NCBI GenBank assembly: GCA_964483665.1
Contig: CAZACP010000001.1
Location: forward strand, 6,358 to 70,357
Reading direction: 5' to 3'
DNA length: 64,000 bases
Source of the DNA: an uncultured Candidatus Saccharibacteria bacterium
GTDB lineage: Bacteria > Patescibacteriota > Doudnabacteria > UBA920
Position 1 is the first letter of the stretch. Each line of letters begins with the position of its first letter. The position numbers were made by a program, and so were the translations under genes. The notes below the pieces were generated by a model. That model was not told the origin of the DNA. It searched no databases and worked only from the letters and a program-made list of their open reading frames with translations. This document shows positions 4,363 to 62,693 of the stretch, piece by piece.

Positions 4363-4500
4363 TGTCGTCCCGGAATTTTTAAGGGCTGTTAAAATATCCG
4401 GGATCTAGATATTAGAAATTAAACAATAAAATTTAAAGGCTCACTCGAGTGAGCCTTTAAAAATGGCAAAATAAAACCCCTAGTTTAGGGTGGGGTAAAA

Positions 4501-4537
4501 AAAATGTGCCGCCCCGGAAATGCTCGTCGGGGCGGCT
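4501..4537 (-). terminator. Rho-independent terminator for the minus-strand orphan gene
   Basis: gccgccccg...cggggcggc stem followed by a T-run on the minus strand. Confidence 0.6.
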
Positions 4538-4542
4538 GGTGG

Positions 4543-4881
4543 TTATTCGCGTGGCCTGCGAGGCCGGTTAGGCGGTTGATAGCGGCGATCCTTGTATGGA
4601 TCGTCTTTATGCAGCCAGCCGTGAAAGCCTTCTAACCCGTAAATTGAAGGGGGACTGACGTCTTGAGGGTACGACGGGGTTGCGGTTTCGGAAGAACCGC
4701 CGAAGAGCTCAGTTGTCTCTTCTGCGCCGGTCATGAACGGAATTCCTTGGCTTGGGTCGGGTACGAACCCTAACCCTCCAGAAAAAGGCATATTGTGGCT
4801 TGTTCGAGTTGGCGGGTTTCCTAGACCCATAAACCCTTCCATAATTTCATCATGGTTTGCGATAGTTAAACAGTGTGCCAT
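4543..4881 (-). CDS. Orphan G+C-rich small protein (Pro/Gly/Ser-rich, basic C-terminal tail)
   Basis: Only long ORF in a visibly GC-rich patch; perfect SD ggaggaaagtgATG; no family recognised. Confidence 0.45.
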   Translation of the reverse strand: MAHCLTIANHDEIMEGFMGLGNPPTRTSHNMPFSGGLGFVPDPSQGIPFMTGAEETTELFGGSSETATPSYPQDVSPPSIYGLEGFHGWLHKDDPYKDRRYQPPNRPRRPRE

Positions 4882-5175
4882 CACTTTCCTCCTCTCCGGG
4901 GAAGTATAAAAAATTACAGAGAGAGAGTCAACTATTCACAGATACACAGATAATATGCAGATTGCACAGATAAGCATATTGTCATTCCGAGCGGAGCGAG
5001 GAATCGCTTCGCGATTGTTTATTAACAAGTTTTAGTATTACCGAAAGTTAAGGGATCCTTCGACTCCTCGACAATTTTAATCTAAAAATTGTCTCGTTGC
5101 TCAGGATTACAAAACATGTTGAGATTGGTTATATTTTTACCTATTTTATACCTTAATTTTTTGATTAGAAATAAC

Positions 5176-5218
5176 AAACGCCGCGGTGTAAACCTCCAGG
5201 TTCCGCAGCGTTTTTTTG
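5176..5218. terminator. Bidirectional hairpin terminator
   Basis: aaacgccgcgg...ccgcagcgttt stem with T-runs on both sides. Confidence 0.5.
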
Positions 5219-5233
5219 TTGTTCAAGGACAAG

Positions 5234-5452
5234 TTAATCCTCATCTTCATCATCGCTTTCATCGAGAGGGCAGTCGGTGCACCGGCCGCTTCCACAACAC
5301 CCGTGAGCTTCGAGGTATTCGTTATAAAGTTTGAGAATTTTATCTATATGGTAGGTACCATCTTTTAACCTTCCTTCTGCTAAGGCTTTCTTTGCCCAAG
5401 CTTCTGCCATGAAGTGGCTACCACCGGTAATGATCATGAGCCTCCTTTTCAT
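5234..5452 (-). CDS. Small Cys-rich protein with acidic tail (HGCCGSGRCTDCPLDESDDEDED); unknown function
   Basis: Starts 9 nt after the miaA stop on the same strand, so probably co-transcribed; aaggaggctcATG SD at the second Met. Confidence 0.5.
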   Translation of the reverse strand: MKRRLMIITGGSHFMAEAWAKKALAEGRLKDGTYHIDKILKLYNEYLEAHGCCGSGRCTDCPLDESDDEDED

Positions 5453-5461
5453 GATACCTTA

Positions 5462-8147: not shown

Positions 8148-9209
8148 ATGAAAAAATTTTTTATTTTTCTAATCCCTGCGCTTTTGTTGTCAGCGGGTTG
8201 CGACGTTTTTTCCAAAGGAGGCAGCGCGGGGCTTTCAAAAACTATAAATGGCGGAGTTGACTGGATTTTAGCCAACAAGCAGGATGGCGGCAGCGGGAGC
8301 ATGCAGGCAGCCAATATTTCCAAGTTGGAAATTGACCCAAATAATCGGGAGAATATTTACGCGGGAAGCTATAACGGCGGGTTGTTTTTGTCTACCGACA
8401 GCGGCGGAACTTGGAAAAATATATTAAGCAACAGCACGGTTTTTGATTTTGCGGTTAATATGGCAAACCCCAAAATTATTTATGCGGCAGGCGACATTGG
8501 GGGGTTGGGAAGAGTGGTTAAAACATCAGACGGCGGAAAAAGTTGGCTTAAAGCTTACAACGAGTCAACGCCCAATAATCCGGTTAGGAGCATTGCCCTA
8601 AACCCCTCAAACCCCGAACATCTGGTTATAGGAACAGACTCGGGGACGGTTATAAAAAGCACTGATGGGGGCTTAAATTGGCAGCTTTTAAAAAATTTTT
8701 CCAGCAAAATTAACAGAATATATTGGACAAACAGCGGGGTCTATGTATTAGTAAGAGAAAAGGGTTTGTTTAAAGGCAGCGGGGTAGGTGATGATTTTAC
8801 CGATTTAACTTCCGGGCTTAGAAGCGAAGGACTGCTTAACCAATTTTCTAAAACCGGTTCGGTAAAAATATTTAACCAGGCGTATGTTGACCCTTTAAGT
8901 AGCAATCTTTTGTATGTAACTACGGATATTGGCTTGTTTAAGTCAATAGATTTAGGAAAAAATTGGACAGCTGTAAAATTGCCGGTAAAACAGGAAGCTT
9001 TAAACGCCAGGCCAATAGTAGTAGCTAAGCAAAATAGTAATACAGTCTTGACCGCCATAGGTTCTATTGTGTATAAATCTACAGACGGGGGAAATAGTTT
9101 TCAAACTCAAAACGTGCCTTTTTTAAACGCTTTTGTAAACTACTTAGTTATGGATCCCGTATTGCCTCAAATAATGTATGTGGGAGGGTATGTAAACCAA
9201 AACAATTAA
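8148..9209 (+). CDS. Lipoprotein with BNR/Asp-box repeats (beta-propeller, Ycf48/sialidase-like)
   Basis: Lipobox LLLSAGC; repeated S/T-x-D-G-G-x-(T/S)-W motifs (TDSGGTWKN, TSDGGKSWL, STDGGLNWQ, STDGGNSFQ). Confidence 0.7.
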   Translation: MKKFFIFLIPALLLSAGCDVFSKGGSAGLSKTINGGVDWILANKQDGGSGSMQAANISKLEIDPNNRENIYAGSYNGGLFLSTDSGGTWKNILSNSTVFDFAVNMANPKIIYAAGDIGGLGRVVKTSDGGKSWLKAYNESTPNNPVRSIALNPSNPEHLVIGTDSGTVIKSTDGGLNWQLLKNFSSKINRIYWTNSGVYVLVREKGLFKGSGVGDDFTDLTSGLRSEGLLNQFSKTGSVKIFNQAYVDPLSSNLLYVTTDIGLFKSIDLGKNWTAVKLPVKQEALNARPIVVAKQNSNTVLTAIGSIVYKSTDGGNSFQTQNVPFLNAFVNYLVMDPVLPQIMYVGGYVNQNN

Positions 9210-9226
9210 CAATTTACGATTAACAA

Positions 9227-9790
9227 TTGACCATGATCGATCAAATTATAAACAATCATAAACCAGAATTTGAAAAAGCTATAGAACACTATTTGCACGA
9301 ACTTTCGTCGGTCCGCACAGGCAGGGCAAACCCGGCTTTGCTTAATACTGTTACAGTAGAAAGCTATGGCGCAAAAATGTCTTTAGAACAGGTAGCCTCT
9401 GTTACCGTGAGTGACGCTAAAACTTTAGTAATAAGCCCGTGGGACAAAAGCCAACTTCAGGCCATAGAAAAAGGCATTCAGCTGGCTAACTTAGGTTTTA
9501 ATCCTTCGAACGACGGTATTGTAATTCGAATTATTTTACCCGCTCTTTCTGAAGAGCGAAGAAAAGAAATGGTAAAAATGGTCGGGCAGATTGCTGAGAA
9601 AGGAAAAATTGCTATTCGAAATGTAAGGGAAAGCGTAATAAAAGAAATGAAAAAAGCGGAAAGCGACGGAAAAATTTCCAAGGACGATTTAACTCACGGG
9701 CAAAAAAAACTGCAGGAGAGCGTGGACAAATATAACGAGGAAATTAAAAAACACGCGGAAAGCAAGGAAAAAGAAGTAATGACTGTTTAA
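9227..9790 (+). CDS. frr: Ribosome recycling factor
   Basis: 187 aa; RRF length and the conserved RTGRANPALL block. Confidence 0.9.
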   Translation: MTMIDQIINNHKPEFEKAIEHYLHELSSVRTGRANPALLNTVTVESYGAKMSLEQVASVTVSDAKTLVISPWDKSQLQAIEKGIQLANLGFNPSNDGIVIRIILPALSEERRKEMVKMVGQIAEKGKIAIRNVRESVIKEMKKAESDGKISKDDLTHGQKKLQESVDKYNEEIKKHAESKEKEVMTV

Positions 9791-17317: not shown

Positions 17318-17397
17318 TATTATGTACTAGGTATAATGTATAATGTGTGGGGAAGGTATTTTATATATTATACTTAATACTTTATACACAATACGCG

Positions 17398-27119: not shown

Positions 27120-27160
27120 CACAGATACGCAGATACTTCAGAGCGCACAGATAAAACACC
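27120..27160. repeat. Left cacagata-type repeat block bracketing the GxxExxY ORF
   Basis: tctcacagatacgcagatac...cacagataaaac; its reverse complement (gtatctgagtatctgtg) lies at 27545..27585. Confidence 0.7.
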
Positions 27161-27544: not shown

Positions 27545-27585
27545 ATCGCGTAATCCGCGTTATCTGAGTATCTGTGAAAGAAACA
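27545..27585. repeat. Right inverted copy of the cacagata words
   Basis: cgcgtaatccgcgttatctgagtatctgtg. Confidence 0.7.
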
Positions 27586-28950: not shown

Positions 28951-28962
28951 GGAAGGCAAAAT

Positions 28963-28984
28963 AAAATCCCCCTTCTTGGGGGTT
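28963..28984 (+). terminator. Hairpin after folA
   Basis: aaatcccccttcttgggggttt. Confidence 0.6.
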
Positions 28985-29034
28985 TAAAATAAAATTGTGG
29001 CCGCGGGTATAACTTCTACCGTTGGCCGGATGGC

Positions 29035-29241
29035 TTATCTCGTTACCTTAATAAACCACCTATACGCGGCTGCGACGCCTATTGGAGCGGCTGCTAGGAT
29101 CGAGGATCCTAAATGGGCCGCCGCCTTTCGGCTCTCGCCGAAAATTGGTGAATCATCCATGTGCCACATGGTTGGCACAAACCAACCGTACCAAAGATAG
29201 CCGAAAGCGACAGTACATACTAGACAAACCAACTTTTTCAT
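29035..29241 (-). CDS. Small hydrophobic protein (Trp-rich TM), uncertain
   Basis: ORF in a GC-richer patch; gagggtttATG start context. Confidence 0.3.
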   Translation of the reverse strand: MKKLVCLVCTVAFGYLWYGWFVPTMWHMDDSPIFGESRKAAAHLGSSILAAAPIGVAAAYRWFIKVTR

Positions 29242-29423
29242 AAACCCTCTTCTTAGATTGTATTTGCCCACGGTGGTCCGCAGGCAGCAATAGGCAATTT
29301 CTGAAAATAAAAAACGGCCTATTGCCGCATACGAAAGCTTATTTTATTACTTATATTTTCTTATTTTTTAGCCCTTTTGTCAATGCTAGAGGCCTTGACA
29401 AAATGTCAAAAATGTGCATATAA

Positions 29424-30575: not shown

Positions 30576-30676
30576 ATAAAAATTTGATATAATTAATTTA
30601 TTGAACTCGCATACAGAAATAAATTAATTTCGAAAAAGTATCTGTGGTATCTGTGCGCTGAAAAGATCTGTGATCT

Positions 30677-33132: not shown

Positions 33133-33135
33133 TAG

Positions 33136-33587
33136 AGCCTTCTCCCGGCGGGGAGAAGGTGCCCGAAGGGCGGATGAGGGTGTTATATGCGCAACATAAA
33201 CAAAAGCTTTGTTAATCTTTCTAGGAATTTAAGAAAAAACGAAACACCTTGGGAAATAAAGTTATGGCAAAGGTTAAGGGGAAGGAAATTTTTAGGATTT
33301 AAATTTAAAAAACAATTGGTTATAGGTAATTATATTTACGACTTTGGCTGCTTTGAAAAGAGACTATTAATTGAACTAGATGGCGGACAATATAGTGAAA
33401 ATGATATTAAAGATAAAGATCAAATTAAGGAAGATTTTGCAAAAAACCAGGGCTATAAAATTATCAGGTTTTGGAATAATGAACTAGACAACAATTTTGA
33501 AGGAGTTTTGGAGACAATTAGAAAAAACTTATTATAACCCTCATCCGGCCGTTGGCCACCTTCTCCCCTAAAGGGAGAAGGCAAACT
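33136..33587. mobile_element. Composite miniature element: DUF559 ORF bracketed by inverted copies of the ccctcatccg/ccttctccc hairpin MITE
   Basis: Left copy 33136..33183 (reverse orientation), right copy 33537..33587; the arms are conserved and the small hairpins differ but remain stems. Confidence 0.7.
33187..33537 (+). CDS. DUF559 (Vsr-like endonuclease-fold) domain protein
   Basis: WEIKLWQRLRGRKFLGFKFKKQ...IELDGGQY matches the DUF559 pattern. Confidence 0.7.
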   Translation: MRNINKSFVNLSRNLRKNETPWEIKLWQRLRGRKFLGFKFKKQLVIGNYIYDFGCFEKRLLIELDGGQYSENDIKDKDQIKEDFAKNQGYKIIRFWNNELDNNFEGVLETIRKNLL

Positions 33588-38712: not shown

Positions 38713-38808
38713 ATGTTTTTACTTCGTAAAAAAACAATTAATGATTAACTAAATAACAATTAACTGCGAGTGCAGTCCTGTTAATCGTGAATTGTAAATT
38801 GTTAATTG

Positions 38809-40167: not shown

Positions 40168-40278
40168 TGGATAGTTATCGGTTGATATAATTATAGTCCC
40201 GATGCTTTTTGGTCGGGGCTCCGACTTTACGTCGGAGTTGATAGTACAAACAGATAATGTTACGATTAAGCTAAAGAT

Positions 40279-40692
40279 ATGCTTACTTACCAAGAATTTA
40301 AGGACTGGTGCGAAACCCACAAGCAAAAATTTGTAATAGCCGCCTGTTTTTTGCTGGTGTTTTTGGCAGGAATAGGGGTGGGCAGATATGAAAAAAACAA
40401 CCGGCAAAGCAACATAAATTTAAATAATTATAGCACAAATAATTCAAAAGAGCAAAAAATTAACCAACAAGCAGGGGAGCAGGCGGTTTTGGGAACAGAG
40501 GCGGTAAAGGCTACGACGACTTTGCCGACGGTTATAAACACAGATGCCTGTAAAATAAAAGGCAACATAGGTACAGGCGGGAAAATTTACCATATGCCGG
40601 GCGGCGCTTCCTACAAAATTGTTAAGCCGGAAATGTGTTTTAATACTGAAGCCGAAGCTGTGGCTGCAGGGTTTAGGAAGGCTGGGAGGTAG
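40279..40692 (+). CDS. Membrane-anchored small secreted protein with a C-terminal Cys-pair domain (CKIKGNI...GKIYHMPGG...CFNTEAEAVAAGFRKA)
   Basis: TM VIAACFLLVFLAGIGV; the C-terminal motif is common in small extracellular proteins of Gram-positives. Confidence 0.5.
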   Translation: MLTYQEFKDWCETHKQKFVIAACFLLVFLAGIGVGRYEKNNRQSNINLNNYSTNNSKEQKINQQAGEQAVLGTEAVKATTTLPTVINTDACKIKGNIGTGGKIYHMPGGASYKIVKPEMCFNTEAEAVAAGFRKAGR

Positions 40693-40728
40693 GGTGGGAA
40701 AACAATTAACAATTAACAATTAACTACA

Positions 40729-40762
40729 ACCTGCTCGCGGTATTGACGGGCAGGCTTTTTTT
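40729..40762 (+). terminator. Rho-independent terminator
   Basis: cctgctcgcggtattgacgggcagg followed by ctttttttt. Confidence 0.75.
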
Positions 40763-40779
40763 TGATAACTTATATTAAC

Positions 40780-41050
40780 TTTGCCCTGGCCGAAATACCA
40801 GGGAAAATGGCTCATATTTACCACCTCATCCCGCGTGAGCCATAAAGTCGTCAACCTTCAAAAATGTCCCCGCAAGCTGTTAAAAAATTTTTGAAGGAAA
40901 TGGCGGCGTGTTGTTGTTAGCCAAGGAGGAACTGTCTATAGGGCATGCGTGAGCTTGCTTACAAACCTGAGACTTTATACAGCCTCTGGTTTTGACTTTT
41001 GTCCTCCTTGGCCGGCTGGTTGATGCAGCCGGTCTTTTTATTTGTTTAAC
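40780..41050 (+). other. GC-rich structured non-coding region upstream of iscS; candidate cis-regulatory RNA or sRNA
   Basis: Several hairpins; 11-nt long-range complementarity gccaaggagga / tcctccttggc; ends in the ccggctg...cagccgg hairpin plus T-run. Confidence 0.3.
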
Positions 41051-41079
41051 GAAAAGATTTTAGCTATAATCCCTGTAAT

Positions 41080-42285
41080 ATGCAAAAAGAAATTTATTTA
41101 GACTACGCGGCCACAACCCCGCTTGATACAAAAGTTAAAGCCTCAATGCTGCCATATTTAGGCAGCGCTTTTGGCAACCCTTCCGCTTTGTATAAAAAGG
41201 GGAGAGAGGCAAAACAAGCAGTCGAAAGTTCTAGAAAAAGTATTGCCGGTTTAATAGGCAGCAGGCCGGAGGAAATAATTTTTACCGCCGGAGGAACGGA
41301 AAGTAACAACCTAGCTATTTTTGGCATTTTAAGAGCGGCTTTGGGGCAGAGTAAAAAAAAGTTTCCGCACATAATTACCACCAGCATTGAACATGCTTCT
41401 GTTTTAGAGCCTATAAAGTCGCTTCAAGGGGAAGGTTTTTTGGCGAGTTTGGTAAAGGTAGATTCGGAAGGAATTGTCAGTCCTGAAAATATAAAAAAAC
41501 AAATTCGGCCGGAAACGGTTTTAGTTTCGGTTATGTATGCTAACAACGAAATAGGTTCTATTCAGCCCATAGCCGAAATAGGGAAGCTTATAAGACAAGA
41601 AAACCAAAAACGGGCGGCCAAAAAATTACCTGTAATATATTTTCATACAGACGCCTGCCAAGCAGCCGGTCTGTTGGATATTAACGTACAAAAGCTGGGT
41701 GTGGATTTAATGACCATTAACGGGAGTAAAATATATGGTCCGAAACAGTCAGGCTTTTTATTTGTAAGGAACGGACTGAATATAAAGCCTTTAATGTATG
41801 GCGGGGGGCAGGAAAAGGCTTTGCGCAGCGGAACAGAAAATGTGGCTAATATTGTTGGTTTTTCTACAGCTCTCAAATTGGCTCAAGAAAATAAATTAAA
41901 AGAAAGTAAAAGGCTTGTAGCCCTGCGCGATTATTTTTTTGAAAAACTTAACAAAAATATTTCCGAAATTAGTTTAAACGGACCTGGTCTTAAGTCAGCA
42001 AAACGTTTGGCCAATAATCTTAATATAAGTGTTATGGGCGTTGAAGGCGAAGCCTTACTTCTATATTTAGACGCCCAAGGGGTGTATGTGAGTACCGGCA
42101 GTTCATGTGATTCAAGCTCAGGGCAAGAATCGCACGTTTTAAGGGCAATAGGCTTAAATGCCAAAATGTCCGAATCGGCCATTAGAATTACTTTAGGCAA
42201 AATTACAAATAAAAAAGATATAGATTACGCGTTGCAAGTTCTGGTAAGGGCAGTGAGTCTGTTAAGAAAATCCAAAACCACATAA
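41080..42285 (+). CDS. iscS: Cysteine desulfurase (class V aminotransferase, IscS/NifS-like)
   Basis: PLP-lysine context (SKIYGPKQSG...) and the SSGQESHV cysteine-loop region. Confidence 0.85.
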   Translation: MQKEIYLDYAATTPLDTKVKASMLPYLGSAFGNPSALYKKGREAKQAVESSRKSIAGLIGSRPEEIIFTAGGTESNNLAIFGILRAALGQSKKKFPHIITTSIEHASVLEPIKSLQGEGFLASLVKVDSEGIVSPENIKKQIRPETVLVSVMYANNEIGSIQPIAEIGKLIRQENQKRAAKKLPVIYFHTDACQAAGLLDINVQKLGVDLMTINGSKIYGPKQSGFLFVRNGLNIKPLMYGGGQEKALRSGTENVANIVGFSTALKLAQENKLKESKRLVALRDYFFEKLNKNISEISLNGPGLKSAKRLANNLNISVMGVEGEALLLYLDAQGVYVSTGSSCDSSSGQESHVLRAIGLNAKMSESAIRITLGKITNKKDIDYALQVLVRAVSLLRKSKTT

Positions 42286-53141: not shown

Positions 53142-53251
53142 TTTTGTCTACTTGTATTTTTTATTTCTGTAGATATTTGGATAAAAAAATATTCGGGATC
53201 CAGAAGCCTAGGGGTTTAGGCTGTCGGATCCCGAAATTAGCATGGTCGAGC

Positions 53252-53587
53252 TTATTTTAAGTCTTTCCCGAACAGCCACTCGACTGGCAGTGTCCAATCT
53301 TGCGGCCTATCATCTTCTGGAACCGCCCCTTCTTCCGGCTGGAATTGTCCAACAGTGAATCCCAGACCTTTCGTGTATTCCTCGATAGCGTTTGCCTCCT
53401 CTGGTGTCAGAGCTTCCAACTCTACATTTGCGTGCATATACCCTAGGGCTGCTGCTTCGCGAAGTTGGGGGCGGACCACGGTTCGGTAATACTTGCTTGG
53501 ATTTTTGCTGAACGCTTCTTCTCTAGCTTTCAATGATTTGTATCCGCGCAAGCTGAGTCCGCGTATACTTCTCAGCTGATTTGTCAT
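53252..53587 (-). CDS. Orphan GC-rich small protein with a perfect SD (aaggagtgagtgATG)
   Basis: Sits between the exonuclease pair and fmt; no family recognised. Confidence 0.45.
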   Translation of the reverse strand: MTNQLRSIRGLSLRGYKSLKAREEAFSKNPSKYYRTVVRPQLREAAALGYMHANVELEALTPEEANAIEEYTKGLGFTVGQFQPEEGAVPEDDRPQDWTLPVEWLFGKDLK

Positions 53588-53729
53588 CACTCACTCCTTT
53601 ATTTCGGACTAAAGAAAAATATCAGAGAGAGTTTTGTCAATAATCTACGGAATATGTATACTGCACTACAGATGTCTATAGAGTTTTTGTAGGTATCTGT
53701 AGATTCGTATAATTTGTAGTTTTGTAGAT

Positions 53730-55717: not shown

Positions 55718-55883
55718 CTTTAAAATCTGGTTTTTATACCAGTTGATTATACCATATTACTTTCGCAGATACACAGATGAAGAAAATAGCACAGATTAGT
55801 ACCTATTACTGCTGCTCAAGAATTGTAGCCCCCTATTTATAAAGACATACGTGTAATCTGTGTTAAATTTGTGTATCTGCGAT

Positions 55884-56576
55884 CTACATTTTTTTAGTTA
55901 AGCCGTTTTCAACCTCATCGAGAATCTTTTTAGCGTGTTCTTTGCCGCCAAGACCAAAGGCAATGCCGCCGGCAATGGCTATCATGGCTACAATAGCTCT
56001 AAATAAGTCTATTAAGAAGTCCGTGGCAATTTGGAGTTGGGAAAGCGAAGCAATAAGCGCAAAAATTACAATTGCCCATTTGGTAATGCTGGCCAGCGCA
56101 GAAGCTGAAGCGTTAAGCCCGCTGGCTTTAACCGAAGATCCGACAATTCCTGAGAAAAAGTTTGCAGCTAAAATTCCCAAAAGCAAAATTGCCATGGCTA
56201 TTATGACCTGGCCGCCGTAAGCGAGCACGCTGTCGTAAAAGAAGCGACTTACTTCATTAAGTCCTAAAATTTCAGCGGTTGCAATAAAGCTGCCTAAGAA
56301 AAAGAACCACTTTATTATCCAGGCGCCTAAAGCGGAAAGGCTGAGTTTTTTTCCAACCTTCTCACCTAAAGAAGCAAGTCCTAGCGAATTGGCAAGCTGG
56401 TCTATTTTTATCGCGTTTAAGATTTTTTCAACAAAGTTAGAAAGCAGGCTGCCCAAAAGCCAGCCGAAAATTATTACAATAATCGCCGCAAGTAAATTTG
56501 GTAAAAACCAAAGTACTCTCTCGTAGAGGTCGCCAAGCGATGTTAATACAGTTGATTGATATGTCATTAGATTCAC
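55884..56576 (-). CDS. Polytopic membrane protein with conserved TM-helix repeats (MscS-N-terminal-like)
   Basis: Repeated Ala/Gly/Ile-rich helices. Confidence 0.5.
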   Translation of the reverse strand: MNLMTYQSTVLTSLGDLYERVLWFLPNLLAAIIVIIFGWLLGSLLSNFVEKILNAIKIDQLANSLGLASLGEKVGKKLSLSALGAWIIKWFFFLGSFIATAEILGLNEVSRFFYDSVLAYGGQVIIAMAILLLGILAANFFSGIVGSSVKASGLNASASALASITKWAIVIFALIASLSQLQIATDFLIDLFRAIVAMIAIAGGIAFGLGGKEHAKKILDEVENGLTKKM

Positions 56577-56775
56577 AGATACACGGATAACACAGATAAC
56601 ACAGATTTTGTGTTAGTGAGATCCGTGAGATTAATTTATTATTTATTATTATCTTTGTTTCGTTAAGGTTTCCGGTATCGACCTTAACCGGGTTGTTTAA
56701 TTTTAGATTTTTGATTACAGATTTTAGATTGTGTTAGAATCTAAAATCCAAAATTTTTAATTTGCGATTATAATT

Positions 56776-57454: not shown

Positions 57455-57494
57455 GTTTCTGTGGTATCGGTAAATTTCCGTGGATATCTGTGAA

Positions 57495-62458: not shown

Positions 62459-62462
62459 AATT

Positions 62463-62692
62463 TTAAAATCCCCTCTTTTTTTAAAAGAGGGGCTGGGGTG
62501 AGGTTGTAAGTTAATTTATAACCTCGCCCCGGAAAACTTTTAGTCCGGATTTAAAAACAAAACGCCCTTTATGTCTAGAGCATAAGCGGGGCGTTTTAAT
62601 TTGTTTAAATTTTCGACAGGACAATTCGCGCCGTGCCCCGTACCCTTCTTCGTGGTACTGGGGCGAATTGTCCAGTCAAATTAAATGCCGAG
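62463..62692. other. GC-rich nested-hairpin region between convergent genes (terminators and/or a small structured RNA)
   Basis: Four stems including ggacaattcgc...gcgaattgtcc and cccctct...agagggg. Confidence 0.35.
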
Positions 62693-62693
62693 T

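Follow-up and report, generated by a model that had tools for sequence, protein, structure and literature searches.

In 'ON' riboswitch leaders, for example the pbuE/ydhL adenine riboswitch, the 3′ strand of helix P1 is part of the terminator. Such leaders, the ribonucleic antiterminator (RAT) hairpins of the BglG/LicT/SacY type, and the iron–sulfur (Fe-S) small RNAs RyhB, FsrA and IsaR1 are the described systems closest to the element reported here, and our comparisons with them draw on general knowledge of these systems. The element is a structured RNA encoded in a 64,000-nt stretch of DNA (the window; GenBank assembly GCA_964483665.1, contig CAZACP010000001.1, positions 6,358 to 70,357 of the forward strand) from an uncultured genome of the candidate phyla radiation (CPR)/Patescibacteria, labelled Candidatus Saccharibacteria. 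It lies in the 387-nt gap between an arfC-like gene and a cysteine desulfurase gene (iscS), and positions below are those of the window unless a locus handle is given. IscS supplies the sulfur for Fe-S clusters and for the thiolation of tRNAs. RNA-based regulation is, to our knowledge, almost undescribed in the CPR/Patescibacteria, a lineage that is uncultured and has tiny genomes.

As in pbuE/ydhL-type leaders, the 3′ strand of the helix that closes the 3′ domain of the RNA (P4) is shared with the 5′ base of the terminator, the two pairings are mutually exclusive, and one consistent gene lies downstream. The RNA differs from those leaders in that it has neither a conserved ligand-binding core nor an Rfam match, the sequence of the helix itself is conserved, and the downstream gene keeps its own promoter past the terminator. 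With RAT-type hairpins it shares a conserved-sequence helix that overlaps the terminator by a few nucleotides, and conservation of the helix rather than of a pocket is what would be expected for a protein-recognised antiterminator; but P4 is long-range and encloses 48-150 nt, whereas RAT is a small local hairpin, and no candidate binding protein is encoded nearby, a distinction that we draw by description. Like RyhB, FsrA and IsaR1, the RNA has a body rich in stem-loops between a promoter-like element of its own and an intrinsic terminator, and it adjoins a cysteine desulfurase gene. Unlike these, it yielded no predicted target among the gene starts of the window, and its terminator competes with an internal helix; here too Rfam gives no match. 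We regard the RNA as a new family with a narrow distribution whose general kind is known, namely a leader coupled to a terminator or else a small RNA.

A conserved structured RNA upstream of iscS

The RNA is predicted to span 40778..41040 on the plus strand (approximately 262 nt), with ends placed by a putative promoter and a terminator. The minimum free energy (MFE) of the plus strand was −95.3 kcal/mol (z = −4.9), and 0 of 200 shuffled sequences equalled it. We take the plus strand as the transcribed one because of conserved G-U pairs in two of its hairpins (H3 and P4a) and because of the T-run of the terminator. The fold opens with three 5′ hairpins. H1 (40784..40803), defined by the fold and a three-copy alignment, pairs CCCUGG (40784-40789) with CCAGGG (40798-40803) around a GAAA-containing loop; four pairs are invariant, two change from C-G to U-G, and two loop-proximal positions are paired in some copies only. 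H2 (40807..40843), defined by the same alignment, has a 9-bp stem (40807-40815/40835-40843) and a variable loop that keeps a CCUC motif. H3 (40847..40907), placed by the alignment and by the fold of a relative (locus L090), is a long hairpin with a base (40847-40853/40901-40907), an inner helix (40855-40859/40893-40897) and a variable apical part with a conserved CCCCGC.

The 3′ domain (40920..41012) is closed by P4 (40920-40930/41002-41012, 11 bp) according to both fold and alignment. Inside it, a 3-bp helix (40934-40936/40994-40996) leads to a three-way junction that bears P4a (40941-40960, with a GNRA loop) and P4b (40963-40992). The 5′ strand of P4 carries the purine tract AAGGAGGAA (40923..40931), and AAGGAGGA is present in all five RNA-bearing lineages described below. 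The intrinsic terminator (41010..41047), supported by a terminator scan and by its energies, consists of GGCCGGCUG, a 7-nt loop and CAGCCGGUC, followed by UUUUUAUUUGUUU; its hairpin (41010-41034) has 9 bp, 7 of them G-C, and both stem and T-run are kept in relatives. This hairpin was the sole terminator-like site in a scan of 40200-41300. The original prediction, made from the letters of the window, had already listed the H1 stem, the tggctca/tgagcca core of H2, the 11-bp long-range helix and the terminal hairpin with its T-run; all of them are there after corrections of 1-4 nt (the strands of P4, for instance, had been placed at 40919 and 41006). Its description of the region as GC-rich is also fair, since the RNA, with a GC content of 0.47, exceeds the intergenic mean (0.34), coding sequence (0.40) and the window (0.39).

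An identical sequence was found on nine public contigs, and three diverged loci (L090, L094 and L010) provided two further alignable copies. In L090, whose IscS is 77% identical, the gene order is the same and the 391-nt gap can be aligned end to end; it folds into the same architecture (z = −3.7), H3 included. The second copy comes from the metagenome-assembled genome (MAG) GCA_964484145.1 (IscS 87% identical) and is split over the contig ends L094 and L010, which we joined via a 6-nt overlap into a composite whose join is uncertain. The two pieces (L094 3373-3662 and L010 1-167) meet at an assembly break inside the RNA, and the join implies a 13-nt tandem duplication, TTGTTAnCCAAG, just 5′ of P4. 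Third codon positions of iscS are 56% identical to those of L090, whereas the RNA reaches 74% over its 5′ part and 88% over its 3′ part.

In the three-copy alignment, 96.7% of the cells were paired, and six pairs had changed on both sides, compared with 0-1 in controls with slid partners. Four of these six are in H2, where 4 of the 9 pairs had changed and every cell is paired in all three copies; the other two are among the 7 pairs of the H3 base (G-C to A-U and C-G to A-U), where two U-G pairs are invariant. The 3′ domain behaved differently, with only 1 variable column out of 58 paired ones (G-U to A-U) versus 9-11 out of 31-33 unpaired ones (Fisher p = 2e-4 to 4e-5), a contrast that is somewhat inflated by the derivation of the structure from those same sequences. 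Comparison of the three copies and folding support the earlier view of a structured non-coding RNA that ends in an intrinsic terminator, show it to be conserved and place it on the plus strand, and we conclude that the gap in the window encodes a real, conserved structured RNA matching no described family.

One could also regard the insert between arfC and iscS as functionless, the decaying remnant of a gene fragment or mobile element. Its patchy presence among relatives and its wide size range (260 to ~700 nt) would fit such a history. We nevertheless consider it very unlikely, given a conservation well over the synonymous-site level, the compensatory substitutions and the nearly unvarying stems of the 3′ domain, and given the searches made of this region: it had no repeats in the window, a distant blastn search against phages and plasmids gave no similarity, and a six-frame check found no open reading frame (ORF) common to the three close copies. 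Pattern scans gave 0 matches in viral contigs and 2 in metagenome contigs, both in unrelated coding sequence.

The region was also examined as a possible repeat or miniature inverted-repeat transposable element (MITE), and blastn-short against the window found no second copy of it. A cctcatcc fragment that had been thought reminiscent of a MITE arm turned out to be a one-mismatch match at chance frequency (6 seen, 5.4 expected), and it is not kept in relatives. The arms themselves presumably correspond to an exact inverted CCCTCATCC pair (33172-33180 on the minus strand and 33538-33546 on the plus strand) flanking about 360 nt of the intergenic region 33133-33551. Another short sequence, GTATCTGTG, is strongly enriched in the window (22 matches versus 4.5 expected) and clusters intergenically, often as inverted copies (4937-4973, 27120-27154, 27568-27576, 30638-30655, 55764-55881, 56574-56599 and 57455-57492; also L098 2119-2221). 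The GTATCTGTG pair in L098 gave a sub-threshold match to the Rfam "trpB ncRNA motif" RF04312, with 23 bits versus a gathering score of 59.

Rfam 15 (4227 covariance models) gave no match at the gathering threshold in the whole window, nor in L098 and L100. Permissive searches of the window and three relatives gave best E values of 0.2-1 for the element and its relatives, far under the cut-offs, and no aptamer appeared even at E < 5. The best sub-threshold rows were the L20 leader RF00558 (13.5 bits, E = 7.3) and mmgR/suhB RF00519 (17.3 bits, E = 0.46), for which the hairpin-rich 3′ part and terminator of the RNA give a weak full-length alignment; but the gathering cut-offs are 58.7 and 41, the match is mainly to the terminator, and the gene context does not fit. 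With ARAGORN, neither the window nor L098, L100, L102 and L103 yielded a tRNA or tmRNA gene. A covariance model of the 3′ domain (R1), run over 93 loci, recovered just its three training copies; a weak match in L100 (E = 0.03) covers P4 and the terminator only. Elsewhere in the window, four long stretches free of ORFs of 120 aa or more (4363-5461, 28951-29423, 53142-53729 and 62459-62693) have a GC content of 0.43-0.45 versus the intergenic mean of 0.34, and could house small genes or structured RNAs; none of them had an Rfam match at gathering score. A literature search on ArfC and ribosome rescue, on CPR structured RNAs and on cysteine-desulfurase riboswitch candidates found nothing relevant.

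P4, its purine tract and the terminator across lineages

ArfC protein homologues were used to reach further loci with the same gene order. The RNA is absent from four of these relatives (L091, L095, L096 and L097), in which the arfC-iscS gap is 49-74 nt. Four distant lineages carry structured RNAs of 330-700 nt at the arfC-iscS position and on the same strand, in gaps of 382 nt (L100), 555 nt (L102) and approximately 820 nt (L098, where the called iscS start is too early), while the contig of L104 begins within the RNA. Folding of the gaps gave z = −3.7 for L100, −6.6 for L102 and −7.8 for L098. These RNAs cannot be aligned with that of the window: no significant local similarity to L098, L100, L102 or L104 was found beyond the AAGGAGGAA tract (z ≤ 1.3), MAFFT global alignment of all lineages failed, and L098 and L102 were the sole significantly similar pair among the distant RNAs (z = 13). 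What they have in common is a layout, namely a strong promoter just past arfC, P4, a terminator that starts within the 3′ strand of P4, and a TATAAT before iscS. A motif scan of all loci showed that the combination of tract and pairing partner is confined to arfC-linked relatives, and CPR iscS orthologues in species-representative genomes mostly have short upstream gaps. The pattern comes from about seven sequences in five related lineages that share ancestry, so the counts are not independent events.

Two of these loci carry further features. In L098, the arfC promoter and the part that is homologous to L102 are separated by about 250 nt of additional structured sequence (2215-2470) and, after it, another TATAAT; this segment may represent a second RNA or else a 5′ extension peculiar to the lineage. 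The 165-nt arfC-iscS gap of L103 (2424-2590) has another 12-bp long-range helix (UUUGAUGGGCAU/AUGCCCAUCAAA) without the AAGGAGGA tract and without a terminator; iscS apparently starts there at ATT or TTG.

Across lineages, P4 is a long-range purine/pyrimidine helix of 10-17 bp whose 5′ strand contains AAGGAGGA. This tract is invariant in the five RNA-bearing lineages, though nothing else aligns. Because a given 9-mer would be expected about 0.0015 times per 400-nt region by our own estimate, the occurrence of AAGGAGGA at the equivalent place in four further lineages is not chance. The interior of P4, by contrast, ranges from 48 to 150 nt and has no detectable similarity between lineages.

In 6 of the 7 copies, the 3′ strand of P4 runs into the terminator, whose stem opens with the final 3-5 nt of that strand, and the sequence of the P4 5′ end recurs at the 3′ end of the terminator, so that three strands change together. 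The window has GCC at the P4 5′ end, GGC (41010-41012) as the shared segment and GUC at the terminator 3′ end; the corresponding trios are CACC, GGUG and CACU in L104, GCGGC, GCCGC and GCGGC in L100, GCGGC, GCCGC and GCGGU in L102, and GCGGU, ACCGC and GCGGU in L098. A switch is recognised by just such a pattern, two mutually exclusive pairings retained under several different sequence solutions. When the shared segment was removed, the calculated energy of the terminator fell from −12.5 to −4.2 kcal/mol in L104, from −15.9 to −3.1 in L102, from −15.2 to −2.5 in L098, from −24.4 to −9.3 in L100, and from −18.0 to −11.0 in the window (loss of GGC); the U-tract then stands 3-5 nt off the terminator stem, and P4 without this segment is weaker by 9-15 kcal/mol. 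By these calculated energies, the shared segment is decisive for the terminator.

The terminator competes with the closing helix in the manner of an expression platform, and that part of the earlier suggestion of a riboswitch or attenuator with a terminator platform stands, as the helix and terminator share 3-5 nt in five lineages. The part that does not stand is the classical ligand-binding riboswitch, in which the 3′ three-way junction would be an aptamer for cysteine or a sulfur or Fe-S metabolite, with P4 as its P1 and the terminator as its platform. A three-way junction closed by a terminator-overlapping helix, junction and loop nucleotides of the 3′ domain that are highly conserved in the window clade (88% versus 56% at synonymous sites) and a consistent gene association are all compatible with it. 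But a conserved core was not found, and the interior of P4 has neither a constant length nor detectable similarity between lineages; the helix sequence is conserved rather than a binding pocket, and the permissive Rfam search contained no aptamer. We therefore think a small-molecule riboswitch quite improbable. Because it is not conserved, the P4 interior suits a spacer or timer better than an aptamer.

The purine strand of P4 resembles a Shine-Dalgarno (SD) sequence, and its pairing with an anti-SD-like partner, pointed out in the original prediction, might be read as translational control. The genome around it gives this reading no support. SD motifs are nearly absent upstream of approximately 58 gene starts in the window, AAGGAGG occurs there at chance frequency (7 seen, 7.5 expected), iscS has no SD, and the tract is not followed by any conserved ORF. 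In several genes, among them those at 17347, 43574 (minus strand), 60246 and 41080, a TATAAT precedes the start codon by 2-9 nt only. The sequence of the window thus suggests that leaderless or SD-independent initiation is widespread. The one puzzling feature of the RNA is that its SD-like tract is invariant, in a genome that barely uses SD and with no obvious translational role.

A related possibility is a translated leader or micro-ORF. AAGGAGG could be the SD of a 16-aa peptide encoded at 40943-40993 (MRELAYKPETLYSLWF), or the tract itself could supply the codons AAG GAG GAA (Lys-Glu-Glu) of a leader peptide responsive to those tRNAs whose thiolation draws its sulfur from IscS. The second version is attractive in that tRNAs for Lys and Glu, which undergo 2-thiolation at U34 (s2U34), need this sulfur. 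L090 retains the 16-aa ORF, with two changes that are both synonymous, and a short ORF with Lys-Glu-Glu and a GTG or TTG start is present in the window, L090, L010 and L102. However, the ATG of the 16-aa ORF is ACG in L010, it lies 13-15 nt from the SD-like tract in a genome without SD usage, a 2-nt indel within the window clade shifts the downstream frame, and in L104, L100 and L098 the Lys-Glu-Glu frame lacks any start codon, which is not what a leader-peptide attenuator would look like. Such a reading is scarcely credible.

Two possible readings: conditional termination or a free-standing small RNA

The RNA is followed by a class-V aminotransferase/cysteine desulfurase gene (41080..42285, plus strand; IscS/NifS-like; Pfam PF00266, E = 2e-64), the sole cysteine desulfurase gene in the neighbourhood, and preceded by the gene of an ArfC-family small membrane protein of 137 aa (40279..40692, plus strand; a recorded precomputed match to PF27542). 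The nearest IscS homologues come from MAGs labelled Saccharibacteria, Doudnabacteria, Uhrbacteria and Magasanikbacteria. The arfC-iscS order is kept in every relative fetched, as part of a conserved order of L27, methylase, arfC, iscS and pilin; genes in the neighbourhood include DUF5667, an extracytoplasmic-function (ECF) sigma factor, T4SS-pilin-like genes and ribosomal protein L27.

The terminator noted earlier, that of the arfC-like gene, is present at 40730..40763 on the plus strand (stem 40730-40737/40747-40754, then a T-run at 40756-40763), as read from the sequence. Its loop bears TTGACG (40743-40748), and in L090 and L094 the sequence of the stem is altered yet still paired, with TTGACG invariant. 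A −35 hexamer inside the arfC terminator was also seen in L091 and L098, so that a compact terminator-promoter overlap recurs across lineages (window 40743-40748, TTGACG; L091 3963-3968, TTGATA; L098 2199-2204, TTGACA). The promoters named here are consensus matches. The putative promoter of the RNA, TTGACG-17-TAACTT (40743..40771, plus strand), has 8 of 12 matches and lies under the scan threshold; the predicted start is approximately 40778, and a conserved TATATT (40771-40776) is an alternative −10 element. The equivalent promoters are TTGACA-17-TATAAT in L102 (12/12), TTGACA-16-TAAAAT in L100 (11/12) and TTGACA-17-TATAGT in L098 (11/12). Just past the stop codons of several genes we also observed a tandem heptamer, (CAATTAA)n or CAATTAACAATT (8 matches versus 1.5 expected), with sites at 9203-9228, 38790-38808 (minus strand), 40703-40721 and 22217, and with 3 copies in the window and 2 in L094.

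iscS appears to have a promoter of its own. A TATAAT of the leaderless type lies 9 nt before its ATG (41065..41070, plus strand) and is conserved in L090 and L010, and TATAAT is found 6-13 nt before the iscS ATG in L100, L102, L098 and L104. The RNA-less L091 has TATACT 9 nt before the ATG, and there the arfC-proximal promoter, TTGATA-17-TATACT, abuts iscS directly, with its −35 within the arfC terminator. A simple leader, as first described, is not supported, because the TATAAT before iscS is conserved and stands 3′ of the terminator.

We tentatively favour, at a strength a little short of probable, an attenuator-type leader with a conditional intrinsic terminator and P4 as the antiterminator. 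Competition between the helix and the terminator suggests regulated termination, and we infer both that regulation and its direction. Transcription would start at the promoter embedded in, and just past, the arfC terminator, and the RNA would fold into H1-H3 and then into the 3′ domain closed by P4. By default, P4 would form once its 3′ strand was made and would weaken the terminator. With P4 fully zipped, the terminator would have no base and the U-tract would not be adjacent to the stem, so that the polymerase would read through the iscS promoter into iscS. If the purine strand were held during the delay of 48-150 nt, the shared segment would be freed, the full terminator would form, and a short RNA (approximately 260 nt here) would be released. 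An RNA-binding protein is one candidate effector, and a free 30S subunit, through the anti-SD end of its 16S rRNA, is another; an unconserved P4 interior together with an invariant tract would point to a macromolecular effector that reads the tract.

Several observations weigh against this reading. In no RNA-bearing lineage has the perfect TATAAT 6-13 nt ahead of the iscS ATG been lost, which implies an independent leaderless transcript, so read-through would not be needed for iscS expression. The overlap in the window is just 3 nt, and an alternative register of the terminator (−12.0 kcal/mol, with three G-U pairs) coexists with P4 in the MFE structure; the design in the window clade is weaker than in the other lineages. 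The L010 copy has lost the overlap. Truncated and constrained folds showed no pairing with the terminator 5′ strand except P4, and no anti-antiterminator. The approximately seven sequences, from five lineages with shared ancestry, count here as well.

Much of this would be expected if the element were instead a stand-alone, clade-restricted small RNA gene with its own promoter and a constitutive terminator, acting in trans by base pairing or protein binding. The free-standing small RNA considered in the original prediction thus survives as one of two remaining readings, and we regard it as a real possibility, though a doubtful one. Its strongest support is the conserved TATAAT of iscS at leaderless distance past the terminator, in addition to the promoter-like elements upstream and the strong terminator downstream. 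The window-clade terminator forms alongside P4, and forcing P4 open in a constrained fold leaves it unchanged; the state of L010 also fits. Adjacency to iscS would then be a matter of syntenic neighbourhood, and it carries little information because the whole order from L27 to pilin is conserved, while the overlap of P4 and terminator would be an inherited quirk frozen by both pairings. Three-strand matching changes that keep exclusive pairings are, however, hard to explain without selection for a switch, and several close relatives (L091 and L095-L097) have no such RNA. No target could be proposed; the 61 gene starts of the window that were compared with the RNA by duplex energy yielded long loop-ridden artefacts only, with iscS and arfC unremarkable, and no second copy or paralogue of the RNA was found among the loci searched.

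A more specific form of the conditional-termination reading would make AAGGAGGA the sensor of a new kind of attenuator, with the anti-SD tail of idle 30S subunits or a dedicated protein capturing the purine strand and blocking the P4 antiterminator. We think this improbable; if true, iscS transcription would be coupled to ribosome availability, and the RNA would be the first riboregulator described for the CPR/Patescibacteria.

If termination is unregulated, the element is a clade-specific small RNA, useful for annotation but ordinary. In either case, the locus offers a compact and comparatively tractable case, with a family absent from Rfam, a three-strand terminator/antiterminator architecture and a single invariant SD-like tract. 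If termination is regulated, it would constitute a control point for sulfur mobilisation, that is for tRNA thiolation and Fe-S supply, in these reduced genomes.

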